This document shows, in pieces, positions 1-7,482 of a stretch of DNA of 9,452 bases (positions within the stretch are counted from its first letter, which is position 1; every line of letters begins with the position of its first letter). The stretch comes from a virus (taxonomy: Duplodnaviria; Heunggongvirae; Uroviricota; Caudoviricetes). Below the pieces are notes generated by a model. The model made no database searches and was not told the DNA's origin. It saw only the letters and a list, made by a program, of their open reading frames with translations. The position numbers and the translations under genes were made by a program. Where the stretch lies: IMG/VR virus record IMGVR_UViG_2711768048_000004; one strand, 5' to 3'.

Positions 1-519
1 TTAATCTTTTTTTATTAAACTTTCACTCGTATAAATCAATTCCGCAATATCTTTTAAATGCCATTGCCGCTCAATATTAAAACTGATTATTCCAGTAATT
101 TTACAGGTAAATGTATTTATATTTGTTAGTATAAATGAATTTACACTTTCGCGTTTTTTGAACATGGCAAGTAAGGATATACATAGTCTTTCTTTTAACC
201 AAAGGGAGTGTGAGTCTGCTATTTTAATCCCTTCAAACAGAGAAAAAACAAGCGATAATGGAGGTTCCTCTTCAGCAATATAGCCATTCTTATCAAGAGT
301 AAATTTGCCAGGCAGCTCATTATTCACGTCGATAAAAAAGGATAAACATGTTTTCTTATCTATATCAACAATTCTTAGTTTAGAGGGGCATACTGGTAAC
401 TCCCTTCTAATTTTGTCGCTTACAATAAACAATGAATTTTTTTTGAACGAGATAACTCTCCTGTTTATAATTAAATCAAATGATTGACAGATGAAAACTA
501 CGGAGCAAACATAATCCAT
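1..519 (-). CDS. appY: AraC-family regulator, AppY-like, N-terminal 172 aa only; ends at a TAA at positions 1-3 just as the HTH region begins, so it is probably truncated
   Basis: The 172 aa ORF is recalled as matching the AppY N-terminal region. Its last residues ([19 protein letters not shown]) look like the start of an AraC-type HTH, but the ORF stops there. A T7 homopolymer (plus strand 7-13) sits right next to the stop. Confidence 0.65.
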
Positions 520-1064
520 CTTGCACCTATCATAAAATTAAAACAAGTTGATAGTAGTCAAATAACAACCAATTAAATACACAATCATAATCAGGATGAT
601 GTGCATTTATATTTTTATACACAAAATTATAGTTTGCAAATTTTAATAAATTTCATTTAAGATTAAATTATTATATGTATGTTGTTTTTTATTCTAACTT
701 ATTTCAAAGTTACATTTTTCAACGCTTACTATGCTTTTTATTAACATAAACTCACTACAACGCACCTGAAACCTCTTGCTATATATATGTCAACCGTTTG
801 AATTTAAAATAAAAAGAGTATCATTTTTACTTGCATTTCTTATCAAGTCACATTCAACAACAGTAAAAAAACATTATTAGAACCATTCAATTAACAAAAA
901 ACCAACATCCAGCTTGCTTAATTTTTCTTTATTAAACGATATTGAAAATCAATTGATAAAATACATCTAAACAACCTTTTGGGGCGCAAAAGCATAACAT
1001 CAAACAAACAAATAACACACCGAAAAAACTCACAATTAATAACCTATGATATACATACTGTTTA
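520..1064 (-). promoter_or_regulatory. Long AT-rich non-coding region upstream of the appY-like gene (promoter/leader, possibly nucleoid-protein silenced)
   Basis: About 545 bp that is highly AT-rich with no ORF above a few codons on either strand, lying directly 5' of the appY start at 519. Confidence 0.35.
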
Positions 1065-1325
1065 TTATAGTTGAATAAGCCACTCGATATCTGGTGCTAC
1101 GGAAGTGTCCACACGGTTTAGCAGCACCCGATACTTTTTTCAGGCTTCCAGCAACGATCTTTCTTCCTCCGTTGCGATTTCCAGATCTACAGCATCCTGC
1201 AGTGGCGCAATATACTCACTGAATTCCTGGATGTAGAACTGTGTGGTGACGGTCTTCCAGCCATTCGGCTCCTGCTGTATTGAAGCATACCAGGCTATTT
1301 CAATATCGCTATGCTGCGGCAGCAT
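1065..1325 (-). pseudogene. tfaX: Tail fibre assembly protein (lambda Tfa-like) C-terminal remnant with an in-frame TGA
   Basis: The 61 aa ORF (1140-1325) ends ...EYIAPLQDAVDLEIATEEERSLLEA, matching the lambda Tfa C-terminal region. Past the TGA at 1140-1142 the same frame continues KKYRVLLNRVDTSVAPDIEW to a TAA at 1065-1067; in lambda Tfa the corresponding residue is Trp (SLLEAWKKYRVLLNRVDTS). Confidence 0.6.
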
Positions 1326-1463
1326 TTAACCCCTTGTAATTCATTGCCATAATTGATTTAATTCACAAATAAAACTATAACATGGTGAAATTAATAAAAA
1401 AACACAGATGATGGGGCTAGAATTTACACACCACTTACCCTAAAGCTTTATGACTGGTGGGTT

Positions 1464-2048
1464 TTGGGAGTATCAAATCGGCTTGCATGGGGATGTCCTA
1501 CAAAGGAACACCTTCTTCCACACTTTCTGGAACATTTAGGTAACAACCATCTGGATATTGGTGTTGGAACTGGGTTTTACCTTACTCACGTACCTGAGAG
1601 TAGTCTGATATCTTTAATGGATTTGAACGAAGCTAGCCTGAACGCGGCATCTACAAGGGCTGGGGAATCAAAAATTAAACATAAAATTAGCCATGATGTT
1701 TTTGAACCTTATCCCGCGGCGTTACATGGTCAATTTGATTCCATTTCCATGTCTTACCTTCTTCACTGCCTGCCTGGAAATATATCTACAAAAAGCTGTG
1801 TAATACGCAATGCGGCGCAGGCCTTAACTGACGATGGAACTCTATACGGAGCCACAATTCTTGGCGATGGAGTTGTGCACAATAGCTTCGGTCAAAAACT
1901 GATGCGCATTTACAATCAGAAAGGCATCTTTTCAAACACAAAAGATTCCGAAGAAGGCTTAACACATATACTCTCAGAGCATTTCGAGAATGTTAAAACC
2001 AAGGTTCAAGGTACTGTAGTAATGTTTTCCGCTTCAGGAAAAAAATAG
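1464..2048 (+). CDS. ybcY: Class I SAM-dependent methyltransferase-like protein (ybcY-like); possibly 5'-degenerate
   Basis: Contains a motif I-like glycine-rich stretch (LDIGVGTG) followed by an acidic residue (LMDLNE) and a hydrophobic block (FDSISMSYLLHCLP). There is no in-frame ATG upstream of motif I, only GTG at 1458 and TTG at 1464 with weak RBS. It is convergent with the tail-fibre remnant downstream. Confidence 0.55.
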   Translation: MGVSNRLAWGCPTKEHLLPHFLEHLGNNHLDIGVGTGFYLTHVPESSLISLMDLNEASLNAASTRAGESKIKHKISHDVFEPYPAALHGQFDSISMSYLLHCLPGNISTKSCVIRNAAQALTDDGTLYGATILGDGVVHNSFGQKLMRIYNQKGIFSNTKDSEEGLTHILSEHFENVKTKVQGTVVMFSASGKK

Positions 2049-2055
2049 CATCCAA

Positions 2056-2088
2056 CCGCAGCATGTTCTTGCTTAAGACGTGCTGCGG
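2056..2088. other. Hairpin between convergent genes (possible bidirectional terminator or RNA stabiliser)
   Basis: Inverted repeat ccgcagcatg (2056-2065) / cgtgctgcgg (2079-2088) with an inner tctt/aaga extension and a 4-nt loop. A U-run follows on the minus strand only after an 8-nt spacer. Confidence 0.3.
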
Positions 2089-2102
2089 CATAATCCCAAT
2101 GA

Positions 2103-2636
2103 TTACTCCCTGACAGGGTTCGTAGGCCACTCAATATCAGGTGCAGTTGATGTATCAACACGGTTCAGCAACCCTTCCGGCTTATTAGCAGAATATGCTG
2201 GTGACGTATGAATCGTCACGCTGGCATTACTGGTATAATCCCATTGAATATTTACACCAGTCGCATAATTTCCGATTGCAACGTAAATATCGTAAGTATC
2301 ACCAGATGTATTGACCCAGGCAAAATTTGTAAACCCTGTCGATGTGCGCTGCCATAAAGCACCAGTAATCCCCTTCGGATTACCATTACCTGCACGCAAA
2401 ACAAGTTCAGATATACCTGCCTGTTGAGGTGACCCCACGTTAAATCCCGCGCCACCAATCAACGTAATTGAAACAACAGAACTCGCCTGTGGCATGGTTA
2501 CCGTTGCTAATTTGAACCAACCAGCACCACCGCTGAATGACATTGTTGTTGAGTTAAGCGTACCAATATCTTTCGGCGTCAGTGTTATATCCGCTGAAAG
2601 CGCCTTACCATTCACCTTACGGGCAGAAGGCATCAT
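2103..2636 (-). CDS. Phage tail fibre / tail-fibre-assembly family remnant (tfaD-like) with a lambda-Tfa-type C-terminus
   Basis: The N-terminal part (VNGKALSADITLTPKDIG, glycine-rich repeats GGAGWF, IGGAGFNVG) looks like a tail fibre or adhesin. The C-terminus (LLNRVDTSTAPDIEWPTNPVRE) matches the lambda Tfa C-terminus. The DNA at 2128-2175 is roughly 75-80 percent identical by eye to 1081-1125. Confidence 0.5.
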   Translation of the reverse strand: MMPSARKVNGKALSADITLTPKDIGTLNSTTMSFSGGAGWFKLATVTMPQASSVVSITLIGGAGFNVGSPQQAGISELVLRAGNGNPKGITGALWQRTSTGFTNFAWVNTSGDTYDIYVAIGNYATGVNIQWDYTSNASVTIHTSPAYSANKPEGLLNRVDTSTAPDIEWPTNPVRE

Positions 2637-2732
2637 TAACGGATAACGCCAGCGTCGCGGGTGCCTCTCCGGCAGTCAGGCTGTCACCGGACACCGCATC
2701 CGTCAGGCGGCTGATCCCAAGCTGGCCTGCAA

Positions 2733-2765
2733 GCGCACAAAAGAAAACCCGCGCATAGGCGGGTT
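2733..2765 (-). terminator. Rho-independent terminator on the minus strand
   Basis: Stem aaacccgc (2745-2752) / gcgggtt (2759-2765) with a 6-nt loop; on the minus strand it is followed by TTTTCTTTTGTG. Confidence 0.45.
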
Positions 2766-2791
2766 CAAGCATAAGCGGCTCATTAAAGGCC

Positions 2792-2959
2792 ATGCTGGCA
2801 ATATGCGGGAGATTTCCTAACCAAATGATTGAACAAATTAACATCGCTCTTGAGCAAAAAGGGTCCGGGAATTTCTCAGCCTGGGTCATTGAAGCCTGCC
2901 GTCGGAGGCTAACGTCAGAAAAGAGAGCATATACATCAATTAAAAGTGATGAAGAATGA
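2792..2959 (+). CDS. Small hypothetical protein, possibly ylcI-like (44-55 aa), with a ribbon-helix-helix-like motif
   Basis: Reading from the ATG at 2825 gives MIEQINIALEQKGSGNFSAWVIEACRRRLTSEKRAYTSIKSDEE, stop at 2957-2959; an in-frame ATG at 2792 is an alternative start. The RBS is weak and the ORF is below the 60 aa track cutoff. The assignment is from memory of a DLP12 small ORF in this position. Confidence 0.4.
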   Translation: MLAICGRFPNQMIEQINIALEQKGSGNFSAWVIEACRRRLTSEKRAYTSIKSDEE

Positions 2960-3123
2960 ACATCCCGCGTTCTTCCCTCCGAACAGGACGATATTGTAAA
3001 TTCACTTAATTACGAGGGCATTGCAGTAATTGAGTTGCAGTTTTACCACTTTCCTGACAGTGACAGACTGCGTGTTGGCTCTGTCACAGGTTAAGTAGTT
3101 TGAATGATTAGCAGTTATGGTGA

Positions 3124-3330
3124 TCAGTCAACCACCAGGGAATAATCCTTCATATTATTATCGTGCTTCACCAACGCTGCCTCAATTGCCCTGAATGCTT
3201 CCAGAGACACCTTATGTTCTATACATGCAATTACAACATCAGGGTAACTCATAGAAATGGTGCTATTAAGCATATTTTTTACACGAATCAGATCCACGGA
3301 GGGATCATCAGCAGATTGTTCTTTATTCAT
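3124..3330 (-). CDS. ybcW: Small uncharacterised prophage protein (ybcW-like, 68 aa)
   Basis: A 68 aa ORF with an ATG start and clean composition, sitting in the DLP12-like position divergent from the ybcV-like gene. Confidence 0.65.
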
Positions 3331-3615
3331 TTTGTCGCTCCATGCGCTTGCTCTTCATCTAGCGGTTAAAATATTACTTCAAATCTTTCTGTATGAAGGT
3401 TTGAGCACGTTGGCCTTACATACATCTGTCGGTTGTATTTCCCTCCAGAATGCCAGCAGGACCGCACTTTGTTACGCAACCAATACTATTAATTGAAAAC
3501 ATTCCTAATATTTGACATAAATCATCAACAAAACACAAAGAGGTCAGACCAGATTGAAGCGATAAAAACGATAATGCAAACTACGCGCCCTCGTATCACA
3601 TGGAAGGTTTTACCA

Positions 3616-4026
3616 ATGGCTCAGGTTGCCATTTTTAAAGAAATATTCGATCAAGTGCGAAAAGATTTAAACTGTGAATTGTTTTATTCTGAACTAAAAC
3701 GTCACAATGTCTCACATTATATTTACTATCTAGCCACAGATAATATTCACATTGTGTTAGAAAACGATAACACCGTGTTAATAAAAGGACTTAAAAAGGT
3801 TGTAAATGTTAAATTCTCAAGAAATACGCATCTTATAGAAACGTCCTATGATAGGTTGAAATCAAGAGAAATCACATTTCAGCAATACAGGGAAAATCTT
3901 GCTAAAGCAGGAGTTTTCCGATGGATTACAAATATCCACGAACATAAAAGATATTACTATACCTTTGATAATTCATTACTATTTACTGAGAGCATTCAGA
4001 ACACTACACAAATCTTTCCACGCTAA
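3616..4026 (+). CDS. ybcV: DUF1398-family protein (YbcV/YdfO-like), 136 aa
   Basis: The C-terminal region ([43 protein letters not shown]) matches the YdfO/YbcV family as recalled. The ATG at 3616 has a GGAAGG RBS 7 nt upstream. Alternative starts are the ATG at 3574 and the TTG at 3493 used by the ORF track. Confidence 0.7.
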
Positions 4027-4316
4027 ATCATAACGTCCGGTTTCTTCCGTGTCAGCACCGGGGTGTTGGCATAATACAATACATGTACGCGCTAAACCCT
4101 GTGTGCATCGTTTTTAATTATTCCCGGACACTCCCGCAGAGAAGTTCCCCGTCAGGGCTGTGGACATAGTTAATCCGGGAATACAATGACGATTCATCGC
4201 ACCTGGCATACATTAATAAATATTAACAATATGAAATTTCAACTCATTGTTTAGGGTTTGTTTAATTTTCTACACATACGATTCTGCGAACTTCAAAAAG
4301 CATCGGGAATAACACC

Positions 4317-4610
4317 ATGAAAAAAATGCTACTCGCTACTGCGCTGGCCCTGCTTATTACAGGATGTGCTCAACAGACATTTACTGTTCAAAACAAACAG
4401 ACAGCAGTAGCACCAAAGGAAACCATCACCCATCATTTCTTCGTTTCTGGAATTGGGCAGAAGAAAACTGTCGATGCAGCTAAAATTTGTGGCGGCGCAG
4501 AAAATGTTGTTAAAACAGAAACCCAGCAAACATTCGTAAATGGATTGCTCGGTTTTATTACTTTAGGCATTTATACTCCGCTGGAAGCGCGTGTGTATTG
4601 CTCAAAATAA
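4317..4610 (+). CDS. bor: Bor outer-membrane lipoprotein (serum-resistance protein of lambdoid phages)
   Basis: The 97 aa product is a near match to lambda Bor as recalled. It has a lipoprotein signal peptide with lipobox LITGC and is transcribed opposite to the lysis genes, as in lambda. Confidence 0.9.
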   Translation: MKKMLLATALALLITGCAQQTFTVQNKQTAVAPKETITHHFFVSGIGQKKTVDAAKICGGAENVVKTETQQTFVNGLLGFITLGIYTPLEARVYCSK

Positions 4611-4641
4611 TTGCATGAGTTGCCCATCGATATGGTCAGCT

Positions 4642-6384: not shown

Positions 6385-7482
6385 ATGAAAAAATTAACAG
6401 TGGCAATTTCTGCTGTAGCTGCATCAGTACTGATGGCGATGTCTGCTCAGGCAGCTGAAATTTATAATAAAGACAGTAACAAGCTGGATCTGTACGGGAA
6501 AGTTAATGCTAAGCACTACTTCTCCTCTAATGATGCAGATGATGGTGATACTACTTATGCCCGTCTTGGCTTCAAAGGTGAAACCCAAATCAACGATCAA
6601 CTGACTGGTTTCGGTCAGTGGGAATATGAATTCAAAGGCAACCGCGCTGAATCTCAAGGTTCCTCCAAAGATAAAACCCGTCTTGCCTTCGCTGGCCTGA
6701 AATTCGGTGACTACGGCTCCATCGATTACGGCCGTAACTACGGTGTAGCATACGACATCGGTGCGTGGACTGACGTCCTGCCAGAATTCGGTGGTGACAC
6801 TTGGACTCAAACCGACGTGTTCATGACTCAACGTGCAACTGGTGTTGCAACCTATCGTAACAACGACTTCTTTGGTCTGGTTGATGGTCTGAACTTTGCT
6901 GCTCAGTACCAAGGCAAAAACGATCGTAGCGATTTCGATAACTACACTGAAGGTAACGGTGATGGCTTCGGTTTCTCTGCTACCTATGAATACGAAGGAT
7001 TCGGTATCGGTGCAACTTATGCGAAATCTGATCGTACCGACACTCAAGTTAATGCAGGGAAAGTTCTTCCTGAAGTATTTGCTTCCGGTAAAAATGCAGA
7101 AGTTTGGGCCGCAGGTCTGAAATATGACGCTAACAACATTTACCTGGCCACTACCTATTCTGAAACCCAGAATATGACTGTATTTGCTGATCACTTCGTT
7201 GCTAATAAAGCCCAAAACTTCGAAGCTGTTGCACAATATCAGTTCGATTTCGGTCTGCGTCCGTCCGTTGCTTACCTGCAATCTAAAGGTAAGGATCTTG
7301 GAGTATGGGGCGATCAGGACTTAGTCAAATATGTTGATGTAGGTGCAACCTATTACTTCAACAAAAATATGTCTACTTTCGTTGATTACAAAATCAACCT
7401 GCTTGACAAAAATGACTTCACTAAAGCACTCGGTGTAAGCACTGATGACATCGTTGCTGTAGGTCTGGTTTACCAGTTCTAA
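6385..7482 (+). CDS. nmpC: OmpC-family general porin (NmpC / Lc / OmpD-like), phage-borne
   Basis: 365 aa with a classic Sec signal peptide ([23 protein letters not shown], cleavage after AQA), porin hallmarks ([15 protein letters not shown] start of mature protein, aromatic-rich beta strands, C-terminal ...VGLVYQF). It sits between Q and the holin on the opposite strand, as in DLP12 and PA-2. Confidence 0.9.

Follow-up and report, generated by a model that had tools for sequence, protein, structure and literature searches.

Gutted lambdoid prophages at the DLP12 and Qin loci

The closest described counterpart of the locus analysed here is the DLP12 prophage of Escherichia coli K-12, in which the morphogenetic module has been lost between the packaging genes and tfa. 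The K-12 form keeps cos, an intact nohD (the Nu1 homologue) and 103 codons of the terminase gene A, and has a single joint, into tfa; this scar (ylcI-cos-nohD-A'/'tfa, where a slash marks the joint) is present in 483 of 5,426 genomes. Comparable scars are known from the Qin locus (ydfJ/ydfK), where an stf that lacks its 5' part directly follows a packaging remnant, as nohA/stfQ in K-12 and as DUF1441'/'stf in strain 97.3. The partner there is a small terminase gene of the Nu1 or DUF1441 type, not C, and the remainder of stf, tfaQ and pinQ are kept. The functional lambdoid phage PhiR29_1 of Escherichia is complete, ylcI being separated from the tail fibre genes by cos through J, lom and stf. 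Fixed recombination points inside tail fibre genes are also a property of the Pin/Hin/Gin/Cin invertase systems, such as the P segment of e14; pinQ lies beside tfa in the Qin-type relatives, and PinQ is active (PMC12529663).

The window, by which is meant the entire 9,452-nucleotide stretch of DNA that was analysed, very probably represents a DLP12-type cryptic lambdoid prophage at the appY/ompT locus that carries a compound deletion scar at 2103-2960. From the open reading frames and annotation, its gene order (ybcN-ninE-ybcO-rusA-ylcG-quuD-porin-essD-rrrD-rzpD-bor-ybcV-ybcW-ylcI) is near-identical to that of K-12, and annotation of the 99.98%-identical locus of strain FDN-24 places the prophage beside appY-ompT-envY, the ybcK/emrE side forming the opposite flank. 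The late cargo block (Q, an OmpD-like porin, S, R, Rz, bor, ybcV, ybcW and ylcI) is shared with PhiR29_1 at 99.4-99.9%. The window thus has the same appY/ompT-side locus and the same cargo genes as K-12 DLP12, with flanks that are 99.9-100% identical (1001-2172 and 2813-3500), but in place of the K-12 scar it has a fragment of C, a fragment of stf, three joints and a truncated ylcI, an arrangement found in 2 of the 5,426 genomes. No counterpart of the K-12 packaging remnant (cos, nohD and A'; L004 4371-6000) was found in the window, which is therefore a structural variant of DLP12 and not the K-12 form. A preliminary description of this DNA, made from the sequence alone, had named K-12 DLP12 as a reference for alignment; this holds for the flanks and fails at the scar itself, where K-12 keeps cos-nohD-A' and has a different joint.

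Anatomy of the compound scar

Each base of 2103-3500 was assigned to a source block, and in the BLAST assignment of 1001-3500 neighbouring blocks overlapped by 2, 0 and 3 bp. The blocks and joints are as follows.

1001-2172: block matching K-12 DLP12 at 99.9% (BLAST)
2103-2172, minus strand: 3' end of tfa, its last 22 codons (LLNRVDTSTAPDIEWPTNPVRE) and the stop codon, within the preceding block
2170-2172: joint J3 (stf'/'tfa), 3 bp of microhomology (GTT on the minus strand), from a three-way alignment of the window, 14EC020 stf and K-12 tfa
2170-2630, minus strand: internal fragment of stf, residues 589-742 of the 986-aa Stf (PSARKVNGK...SANKPEGL), a 461-bp match at 100% to the intact stf carried by strain 14EC020 (L009 4001-4461)
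2630-2631: joint J2 (C'/'stf), 0 bp of microhomology, from alignment of the window, PhiR29_1 gene C and intact stf
2631-2814, minus strand: remnant of gene C (head protease/scaffold, S49 peptidase), codons 7-67, 184 bp, 100% identical to PhiR29_1 gene C
2813-2814: joint J1 (ylcI'/'C), 2 bp of microhomology (AA on the minus strand), from alignment of the window, the ylcI and C sides of PhiR29_1, and K-12
2813-3500: block matching K-12 DLP12 at 100% (BLAST)

Read in the direction of phage late transcription (the minus strand of the window), a 5'-truncated ylcI is followed by C codons 7-67, the 461-bp piece of stf and the last 22 codons of tfa. These pieces stand in the order and orientation of the intact phage, and the scar is therefore the loss of three intervals. 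Their sizes were set by the intact relative PhiR29_1, in which the cargo block is followed by cos, Nu1, A, W, B, C ... J, lom and stf; the intact stf-tfa-pin layout is present in strain 14EC020.

Interval 1: 4,683 bp, with cos, Nu1, A, W and B
Interval 2: about 16.8 kb, from the remainder of C up to and including the first 588 codons of stf (a composite estimate, as no single reference has both the matching C allele and the matching stf allele)
Interval 3: about 1.25 kb, with the remainder of stf and most of tfa

Lost in all, relative to intact relatives, are about 22.7 kb: cos and Nu1, the genes A, W and B, almost the whole of C, the genes from D to J, lom, and the greater part of stf and tfa. 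The reading of this region as a deletion scar in a lambdoid prophage, with the cos, terminase, head and tail genes gone, is borne out. The preliminary description had, however, envisaged a single junction with the whole module missing, where there are three joints and a 184-bp piece of gene C remains. It had placed the breakpoint within 2640-2960: J1 (2813/2814) falls inside this segment, J2 (2630/2631) lies 10 nt outside it and J3 (2170-2172) well outside. What had been called a tail-fibre remnant is indeed stf sequence, but as an internal fragment fused to the end of tfa by the third joint. Its reported proximity to the ylcI block, at about 300 bp, also stands, the tail-fibre-type frame ending at 2636 and the ylcI frame starting at 2792; the interval is not featureless, however, for 2631-2814 is the remnant of C.

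No packaging sequence was recovered. A 25-nt cosN pattern allowing up to 3 mismatches gave 0 matches, and no Nu1 or terminase frame was found here among the open reading frames or by BLAST, as had been noted earlier. The segment 2640-3120, where a cos site or terminase remnant had been expected to move the breakpoint if present, yielded neither by the cosN pattern or BLAST. When 1001-3500 was compared with lambda and PhiR29_1 by BLAST, nothing matched lambda 48256-48502 or 1-4435, or PhiR29_1 L008 15320-20000; Rfam gave no match in the window. Because this lineage's DLP12, unlike that of K-12, has neither cos nor nohD, a helper terminase cannot cut at cos or package it, and it cannot donate those genes to lambdoid phages.

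The remnants are without any function as phage genes, and the prophage is without morphogenetic genes for virions. The C remnant is 94.6% identical to lambda 4436-4619 at the DNA level, and its protein 92% identical to residues 7-67 of lambda gpC (61 residues). An intact S49 catalytic frame is absent: residues 7-67 of 439 are left, these have no Pfam S49 match, and the frame stops 7 codons past J2. Likewise, a full-length stf with the N-terminal attachment domain and a full-length tfa are absent, Stf residues 589-742 being fused in frame to the last 22 residues of Tfa. The Pfam family Caudo_TAP matches residues 156-174 of this fusion. From 2813 onward ylcI is 100% identical to K-12 and has lost its first 16 codons; the K-12 protein begins MSTKNRTRRTTTRNIR, followed at the break by FPNQ..., and the native start, the 16 codons and the upstream region are deleted in the window.

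The joints have created three chimeric frames, and a hairpin lies in the C remnant.

2103-2636, minus strand: frame of 177 aa, Stf residues 589-742 and the last 22 Tfa residues
2617-2889, minus strand: frame of 90 aa, antisense ylcI, in-frame C residues 7-67 and 7 out-of-frame stf codons
2745-2766, minus strand: terminator-like hairpin and T-run, 8 pairs (pattern scan)
2792-2959, plus strand: chimeric ylcI frame of 55 aa, 7 codons (MLAICGR) from antisense C and then ylcI codons 17-64

The ATG ATG at which the 177-aa frame starts is the last 6 nt of the C remnant in another frame. The overlapping small frames reported on both strands (2617-2889 and 2792-2959) therefore exist as sequences, but they are chimeras made by the joints; the 90-aa frame, which has no Pfam match, is a by-product of J1 and J2. 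In the PGAP annotation, the region of the 177-aa frame appears as pseudogene fragments and the tfa remnant as a 22-aa 'tail fiber assembly protein'. These labels can now be corrected: the "hypothetical" fragments are remnants of C and stf, and both the 22-aa protein and the 55-aa YlcI are products of junctions.

The minus-strand terminator hairpin described at 2745-2765 was recovered, with its T-run, at 2766-2745. It fits the pattern of a Rho-independent terminator (a GC-rich stem-loop and a U-run) and folds well (-19.4 kcal/mol, z = -3.2), but it is gene C coding sequence (EPAYARVFF) that is also found in lambda at 4486-4507, and not a purpose-built terminator. An 11-nt likeness (CGCGGGTTTTC) to sequence beside lambda cosN had raised it as a candidate part of cos; the likeness is coincidental, the hairpin aligning perfectly within C. 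It is very unlikely that the interval serves as a functional cargo or regulatory module in which the hairpin insulates the ybcW/ylcI block and the small frames are real genes. The fit of the hairpin, the annotation of the 55-aa YlcI as a protein by PGAP with its DUF3950 domain intact (Pfam, E = 1.6e-20), and perfect conservation in at least 7 assemblies would agree with such a role. In lambda and PhiR29_1, however, the hairpin sits in C coding sequence inside the Q-antiterminated late operon, and terminator-like matches in the region number 2 against 1.2 +/- 1.1 expected from shuffled sequence, which is not above expectation. Moreover, the frames are chimeras of unrelated reading frames with no family match outside the remnants, and the conservation is that of a clone, the whole 6 kb being 99.96-100% identical among the assemblies.

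Distribution and formation of the scar

Among 5,426 complete genomes, J1, J2 and J3 (the last searched as one contiguous stretch) were each found only in strains FDN-24 and FDN-9. That these are the only two complete RefSeq genomes with the junction, that both come from one study, and that repeated prophage sequences are prone to misassembly would be expected of an assembly artefact. Against this, 2050-3000 of the window is 100% identical in at least 7 independent assemblies, complete and draft (CP084534.1, GCA_004170965.1, GCA_038349485.1 and others), and the index of the collection lists the chimeric YlcI in 138 blocks; an artefact is refuted for practical purposes, with a probability that is close to negligible. 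The scar is clonal. A protein search with YlcI for N-terminal chimeras returned a list dominated by error-bearing contigs of about 3.5 kb, at a guess lambda control DNA.

In kind, the scar is ordinary prophage decay and, taken by itself, a finding of modest importance: one more way of gutting a DLP12-type prophage. Judged from the sequence at the joints, the microhomologies of 2, 0 and 3 bp would be the signature of RecA-independent illegitimate joining, rather than of homologous or classical site-specific recombination. The joining may have proceeded by end-joining after breaks or by template switching.

With somewhat less than even probability, the preferred course of events is that J1 and J2 arose in one event and J3 as a separate small deletion. 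Breaks would have occurred at the two recurrent sites discussed below, one in ylcI and the other in the GGTACC of stf; the approximately 21.5 kb between them would have been lost, and the ends rejoined with capture or copying of the 184-bp piece of C. Two observations support a single event. For two deletion ends placed at random in 21.5 kb, the probability of lying no more than 184 bp apart is about 0.9%, and in one other junction class, L017, a filler of only 7 nt separates the same two sites in ylcI and stf. The passage of De Paepe et al. cited here makes breaks in this region of a resident prophage plausible. Counting against a single event, serial deletions that progressively trimmed islands of sequence would reach the same end state. 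Genomes carrying only one of the joints J1, J2 and J3 were not found, so that how many events there were, and in what order, cannot be reconstructed.

Both flanks are K-12-like and the different scar of K-12 keeps material that is missing here; therefore, either the common ancestor was more complete or a PhiR29_1-like phage supplied the locus anew by recombination. The same flanks, matching K-12 up to J1 and J3 with 1,630 bp of different material between them in K-12, would be expected if the 640-bp insert (stf' and C') had been imported from another prophage, for example one at the Qin locus, to replace the K-12-type nohD-cos segment of an already decayed DLP12. The stf fragment is 99.8-100% identical to stf of Qin-locus prophages, phages frequently exchange sequence with defective prophages (PMC3945230), and hybrids such as MB06234 combine a late region of the DLP12 type with a right end of the Qin type. 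Import is nevertheless unlikely: no donor with the C'/'stf joint occurs in the 5,426 genomes, and illegitimate joints at J1, J2 and J3 would still be required. In addition, the 22-codon remnant of tfa is nested in the larger one of K-12 and the fragments are collinear with the intact phage, both of which deletion predicts and import does not require.

Recurrent break points in stf and ylcI

The stf side of J2 falls inside a GGTACC hexamer of the intact gene (context CGGGTACCTTCT, L009 3995-4006), just after the tandem shaft repeats of stf. At least 6 further junction classes, joined to other partners, end in the same hexamer, among them the Qin scar of the 97.3 type, the stf of which is 99.8% identical to the fragment in the window. 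The ylcI-side end (after ...GGTTAGGAAA) lies 247 bp from cos, and the same nucleotide is used by at least two other junction classes. The classes come from lambdoid prophages at two loci and from a P2-like prophage. Those ending at the stf hexamer are the following.

The window: C'/CC
DUF1441-type small terminase'/: GGTA overlap
Nu1'/ (P0026/L035): TACC overlap
stf codon ~92/ (P0020/L036): 1-nt overlap
P2-like prophage (P0012/L037): ...CGCGTACC/
L017: ynfO', 7-nt filler, TACC
UR21, reciprocal side: stf...GGGTAC/tfaX

The classes using the ylcI site are the window, MB06234/L018/L019 and L017. Only three classes that enter the same 800-nt region of stf end elsewhere, and the chance that 5 of the 8 other classes should lie in a 6-nt window defined beforehand would be about 1e-9, for classes that were collected opportunistically and not by an unbiased survey. 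A BLAST survey for end points with the intact ylcI region found as the best place in each genome usually an intact copy. The K-12 Qin joint nohA/stfQ, which lies at another position in stf, is not informative on a hot spot.

The reuse of break points by unrelated junctions suggests site-specific DNA breakage. It is possible, though doubtful, that the end points are set by sequence-specific breakage at the GGTACC of stf and after ...GGTTAGGAAA in ylcI, with each cut joined to any available partner, an explanation that is compatible with the scar model above. Candidates for the breaking activity would be gyrase, a restriction enzyme of the KpnI type (GGTAC^C), or a serine recombinase whose cut at TA is staggered by 2 nt. 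In its favour are the seven stf classes with different partners inside one hexamer, the three classes at the ylcI site, and the rarity of GGTACC in these phages (lambda has 2 such sites, and the 8.2-kb stf region has 1), together with the presence beside tfa in Qin-type prophages of the gene for PinQ, an active recombinase (PMC12529663). The opportunistic collection of the classes weighs against it, as does the failure to find notable secondary structure at either site or a common motif that convincingly links the two. The partner in the DUF1441 class has GGTATC instead of GGTACC, and simple cutting and religation between two KpnI-type sites is therefore excluded for that class. Tentatively, both sites may be cut repeatedly by an enzyme of the restriction type, by a topoisomerase, or by a recombinase acting on a pseudo-site, and prophages would so be driven into convergent, stereotyped decay. 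Were this true, it would provide a testable mechanism for the convergence of defective prophages on architectures in which a packaging gene is fused to a tail fibre gene.

Other explanations of the recurrent sites were rejected. As a replication barrier, secondary structure at either site is not indicated, for folding was no better than that of shuffled sequence. The Pin invertase sites of e14, derived here and confirmed in the literature, read TTCTCCCAAACC-AA-(C/G)GTTT... and encode NLGLGE; no such site occurs at or near either recurrent break point, and neither junction fits TTCTCCCAAACC-AA-SGTTT in the register of the joint, which also counts against breakage by an enzyme of this kind. The stf break point resembles the invertase systems in being fixed within a tail fibre gene, but the partners here are unrelated to one another in sequence, and deletions result where an invertase would give inversions. 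No AAACCNNGGTTT was found in loci L001-L006, nor an inverted-repeat partner in 14EC020.

With respect to the 7-nt filler of L017, an origin as a trimmed piece of C was rejected, given that no gene C allele contains ATCAACGTTA, as was an origin as a natural allele of stf, the sole match in IMG/VR being L017 itself. Two likenesses, both unproven, were also observed: the junction core of L017 (GAAATCAACGTT) resembles the pix core at 10 of 12 positions, and CCTTCTGCC agrees at 8 of 9 with the inverted repeat at its outer end.

Composition and distribution of the scar

An ORF map and a megablast search of positions 2050-3400 against 5,426 complete E. coli genomes identified the window as the DLP12 cryptic prophage locus, with the following gene order.

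1-519, minus strand: appY
After appY: tfaX pseudogene, then ybcY methyltransferase pseudogene
2103-2636, minus strand: tail-fibre-like ORF
Thereafter: ylcI, ybcW, ybcV, bor, rzpD/rzoD, rrrD, essD
6385-7482, plus strand: intact nmpC-type porin gene (PGAP 'porin', 365 aa)
After the porin gene: quuD, ylcG, rusA, ybcO, ninE, ybcN

The window is 99.98% identical to FDN-24, where the annotated context comprises ompT, envY, and nfrA on one flank and ybcK and emrE on the other, and two draft assemblies of the same lineage match it at 100% identity over the 5,959 window bases covered. The porin gene is intact, whereas in K-12 MG1655 IS5 directly follows a shorter porin CDS; the functional lambdoid phage PhiR29_1 carries the same nmpC-type porin as cargo. 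At window 7-13, a poly-A run of the appY coding strand reads as seven T compared to eight in FDN-24 and K-12, so that AppY is only 172 residues long and its stop codon falls at window 1-3. The run also varies among sister assemblies (seven in L029; eight in L028, as in FDN-24), and the difference reflects either a sequencing error in the homopolymer or a genuine frameshift polymorphism of appY. Outside the window, ompT is annotated as frameshifted in FDN-24 (L001 8519-9471 and 20974-22202 being the regions noted), and an IS3-family element adjoins the ybcL-like kinase-inhibitor gene in its early prophage region.

The preliminary description had placed a single deletion junction, with the morphogenetic module lost, between the tail-fibre remnant and ylcI. 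Local BLAST of window 1001-3500 against K-12 DLP12, lambda, PhiR29_1, and the intact Qin-locus prophage of strain 14EC020 assigned all bases.

1001-2172: K-12 DLP12 (99.9% identity)
2170-2630: stf of 14EC020, L009 4001-4461 (100%)
2631-2814: gene C of PhiR29_1 (100%); lambda 4436-4619 (94.6%)
2813-3500: K-12 DLP12 (100%); lambda 48255-47568 (99%)

In the gene C piece, the coding sequence covers residues 7-67 of the head protease/scaffold protein (92% identity to lambda gpC); the stf piece represents residues 589-742 of the 986-residue side tail fibre, and the tail-fibre ORF closes with 70 nt from the end of tfa, the assembly gene (Pfam Caudo_TAP match). The deletion itself was correctly recognized in substance, and the analysis bears out the gap between the two ORFs (tail-fibre ORF end at 2636, ylcI ORF start at 2792) and the absence of cos (no match to a 25-nt cosN pattern at up to three mismatches) and of Nu1/terminase DNA (same local BLAST); the head-gene remnant had been missed, and both the BLAST blocks and nucleotide alignments show that the joints number three, not one.

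Joints of the scar from nucleotide alignment (slash, joint)
J1, ylcI to gene C, 2813/2814: ...GGTTAGGAAA/TCTCCCGC; 2 bp shared (AA)
J2, gene C to stf, 2631/2630: ...GTTAATGATG/CCTTCTGCC; 0 bases shared
J3, stf to tfa, 2172-2170: ...CCGGAAGGGTT/GCTGAACC; 3 bp shared (GTT)

Among the complete RefSeq genomes (5,426), J1, J2, and J3 are each contiguous only in FDN-24 and FDN-9. The chimeric 55-residue YlcI occurs in 138 indexed blocks of a large assembly collection, and all seven loci returned, which come from complete and draft genomes of different projects, match window 2050-3000 at 100% identity. What the window carries is a genuine, clonally inherited scar, in which deletion at three joints of a DLP12-type prophage left a piece of a head gene behind; in kind it is ordinary.

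Extent and possible origin of the deletions

In PhiR29_1, the same cargo block is followed by cos, Nu1, A, W, B, C, D, and E, and on to J, lom, and stf. Relative to this phage, J1 removed 4,683 bp, comprising the 5' end of ylcI, cos, Nu1, A, W, B, and six codons of gene C. The loss at J2, approximately 16.8 kb, is a composite estimate from two references, being the sum of 15,025 bp (gene C codon 68 to the start of stf in PhiR29_1) and 1,764 bp (14EC020-type stf), while that at J3 is about 1,253 bp (reference 14EC020). Overall, some 22.7 kb were lost and 645 bp of remnants left, all of them collinear and co-oriented with the intact phage, which matches the prediction for deletion.

With 2, 0, and 3 bp of microhomology, the joints suggest illegitimate joining, which would not depend on RecA-type homology. 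Serial deletions fit the joints, as does a history in which one complex event produced J1 and J2, followed by a small, separate J3. We lean slightly toward the complex event, given that a pair of independent deletions would spare as little as a 184-bp island within 21.5 kb with a chance of approximately 0.9%, and that in a different junction class, that of an IMG/VR contig (L017), only a 7-nt filler lies between the ylcI nucleotide and the stf hexamer used in the window; the latter joint looks like the same double break mended without the captured gene C fragment. No intermediates of the joints were found in 5,426 complete genomes, and the complex event remains an inference. De Paepe et al. 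(PMC3945230) described the cos region common to lambda and DLP12 as a recombination hot spot, which they ascribed to cos being the site of double-strand breaks, probably in the two alike. On that account, a resident prophage could plausibly be broken in this part too.

Recurrent break points and related scars

What sets the scar apart is only that, of its six ends, two lie at break points that other junctions use as well. At J2, the stf end falls within the hexamer GGTACC, as read in intact stf (...AATGGTCGGGTA/CCTTCTGCCCGT; protein ...ANDNANGRV/PSARKVNGK; L009 3995-4006, window 2630/2631), just past the tandem shaft repeats. Seven junction classes, the window included and each with a different partner, map to this one hexamer, and they come from lambdoid prophages of two loci as well as from a P2-like prophage. 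The partners are gene C, a DUF1441-type small terminase, Nu1, the stf N-terminus, ynfO, P2 capsid-region sequence, and tfaX.

Other classes at the stf hexamer
DUF1441-type small terminase remnant: Qin-locus prophages, e.g., 97.3; GGTA overlap, intact partner GGTATC
Nu1-Stf in-frame fusion: P0026/L035 2084-2087; TACC overlap
Internal stf deletion from codon ~92: P0020/L036 2778
P2-like prophage, region just after the capsid gene: P0012/L037 ~2522
ynfO' with 7-nt filler: L017 ~4120 on the stf side
Reciprocal side: UR21, stf...GGGTAC/tfaX
Further stf break-point coordinates: L002 ~8461; L014 ~3200

In every right-hand class no more than (G)GTACC is left, and in the left-hand class GGGTAC, which fits a break within the hexamer. 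Of the classes that enter the same 800-nt region, just three stop elsewhere (Q/stf, Nu1 residue 52/stf, and ylcI'/stf codon ~436); for five of eight other classes to fall within 6 nt, the probability is ~1e-9, with the window site predefined and the classes gathered opportunistically.

The ylcI side of J1 (...CATTTGGTTAGGAAA/) is common, to the nucleotide, to two other classes: the ylcI'/stf codon ~436 class of MB06234 (L016 4078), an IMG/VR contig, and a food metagenome (L018 ~6983, L019 ~1716), and that of L017 (~4112), where ynfO' plus the 7-nt filler is joined to the stf hot spot. All three classes read GGAAATC at the joint, intact alleles being GGAAA[A/G/T]CGGATG. Folding revealed no special secondary structure at the recurrent break sites, and no common motif links those of stf and ylcI. 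The known Pin crossover site does not fit as their cause.

The K-12 DLP12 locus, of a type present in 483 of the 5,426 genomes, retains ylcI, cos, nohD, and A' (103 codons), and then a tfa fragment lacking its N-terminus. Between the points equivalent to J3 and J1, K-12 has 1,630 bp compared to 640 bp of different material in the window. Simple deletion cannot turn either form into the other. Either the two descend from a more complete common ancestor, or recombination with a PhiR29_1-like phage rebuilt the locus. At the same locus, EcPF15 (L015, NZ_CP054227.1 4869-5224) retains nohD, A, W, and B, and 64 codons of gene C run directly into the end of tail gene I; the break in gene C is only 13 nt away from that of the window (...CTGGCGTTA/ACGGTAAG). 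In UR21, J, lom, and stf' remain, with tfaX attached to stf'. MB06234 (L016, NZ_CM129882.1 1-8080) is a hybrid prophage in which a DLP12/PhiR29-type late region (porin through ylcI) is directly joined to a 5'-truncated stf, followed by tfa, a Pin-type recombinase gene, ydfK, and ynfT, the right end of the Qin locus. In chimeric ORFs of public assemblies (P0026, P0008, P0016), C-terminal modules of Stf are preceded by Nu1, for which there are two distinct joints, or by the Q antiterminator. It seems that decaying prophages commonly end up with a packaging or late gene fused to a tail fibre gene.

Hairpin and small ORFs of the scar

The minus-strand hairpin proposed as a terminator does exist (2766-2745; fold -19.4 kcal/mol, z = -3.2), but we would not call it a designed terminator, since it is coding sequence for EPAYARVFF of gene C and also occurs in lambda and PhiR29_1, within the Q-antiterminated late operon. 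Three ORFs are by-products of the joints.

2792-2959, plus strand: chimeric ylcI ORF; first 16 codons (MSTKNRTRRTTTRNIR) swapped for seven from antisense gene C, DUF3950 domain intact
2617-2889, minus strand: antisense ylcI continuing in frame into the gene C remnant
177-aa ORF: ATG ATG start supplied by the final 6 nt of the gene C remnant

RefSeq annotates two intact CDSs on the minus strand, of which the 22-aa 'tail fiber assembly protein' (2103-2171) is merely the tfa tail left by J3, and the 45-aa 'nucleocapsid protein' (1993-2130), spanning the ybcY/tfa boundary, looks spurious. A YlcI protein search also returned hundreds of singleton ENA contigs of ~3.5 kb with slightly mutated, extended YlcI-like ORFs, some labelled Staphylococcus or Veillonella; our guess is that these are lambda control DNA contaminating the assemblies.
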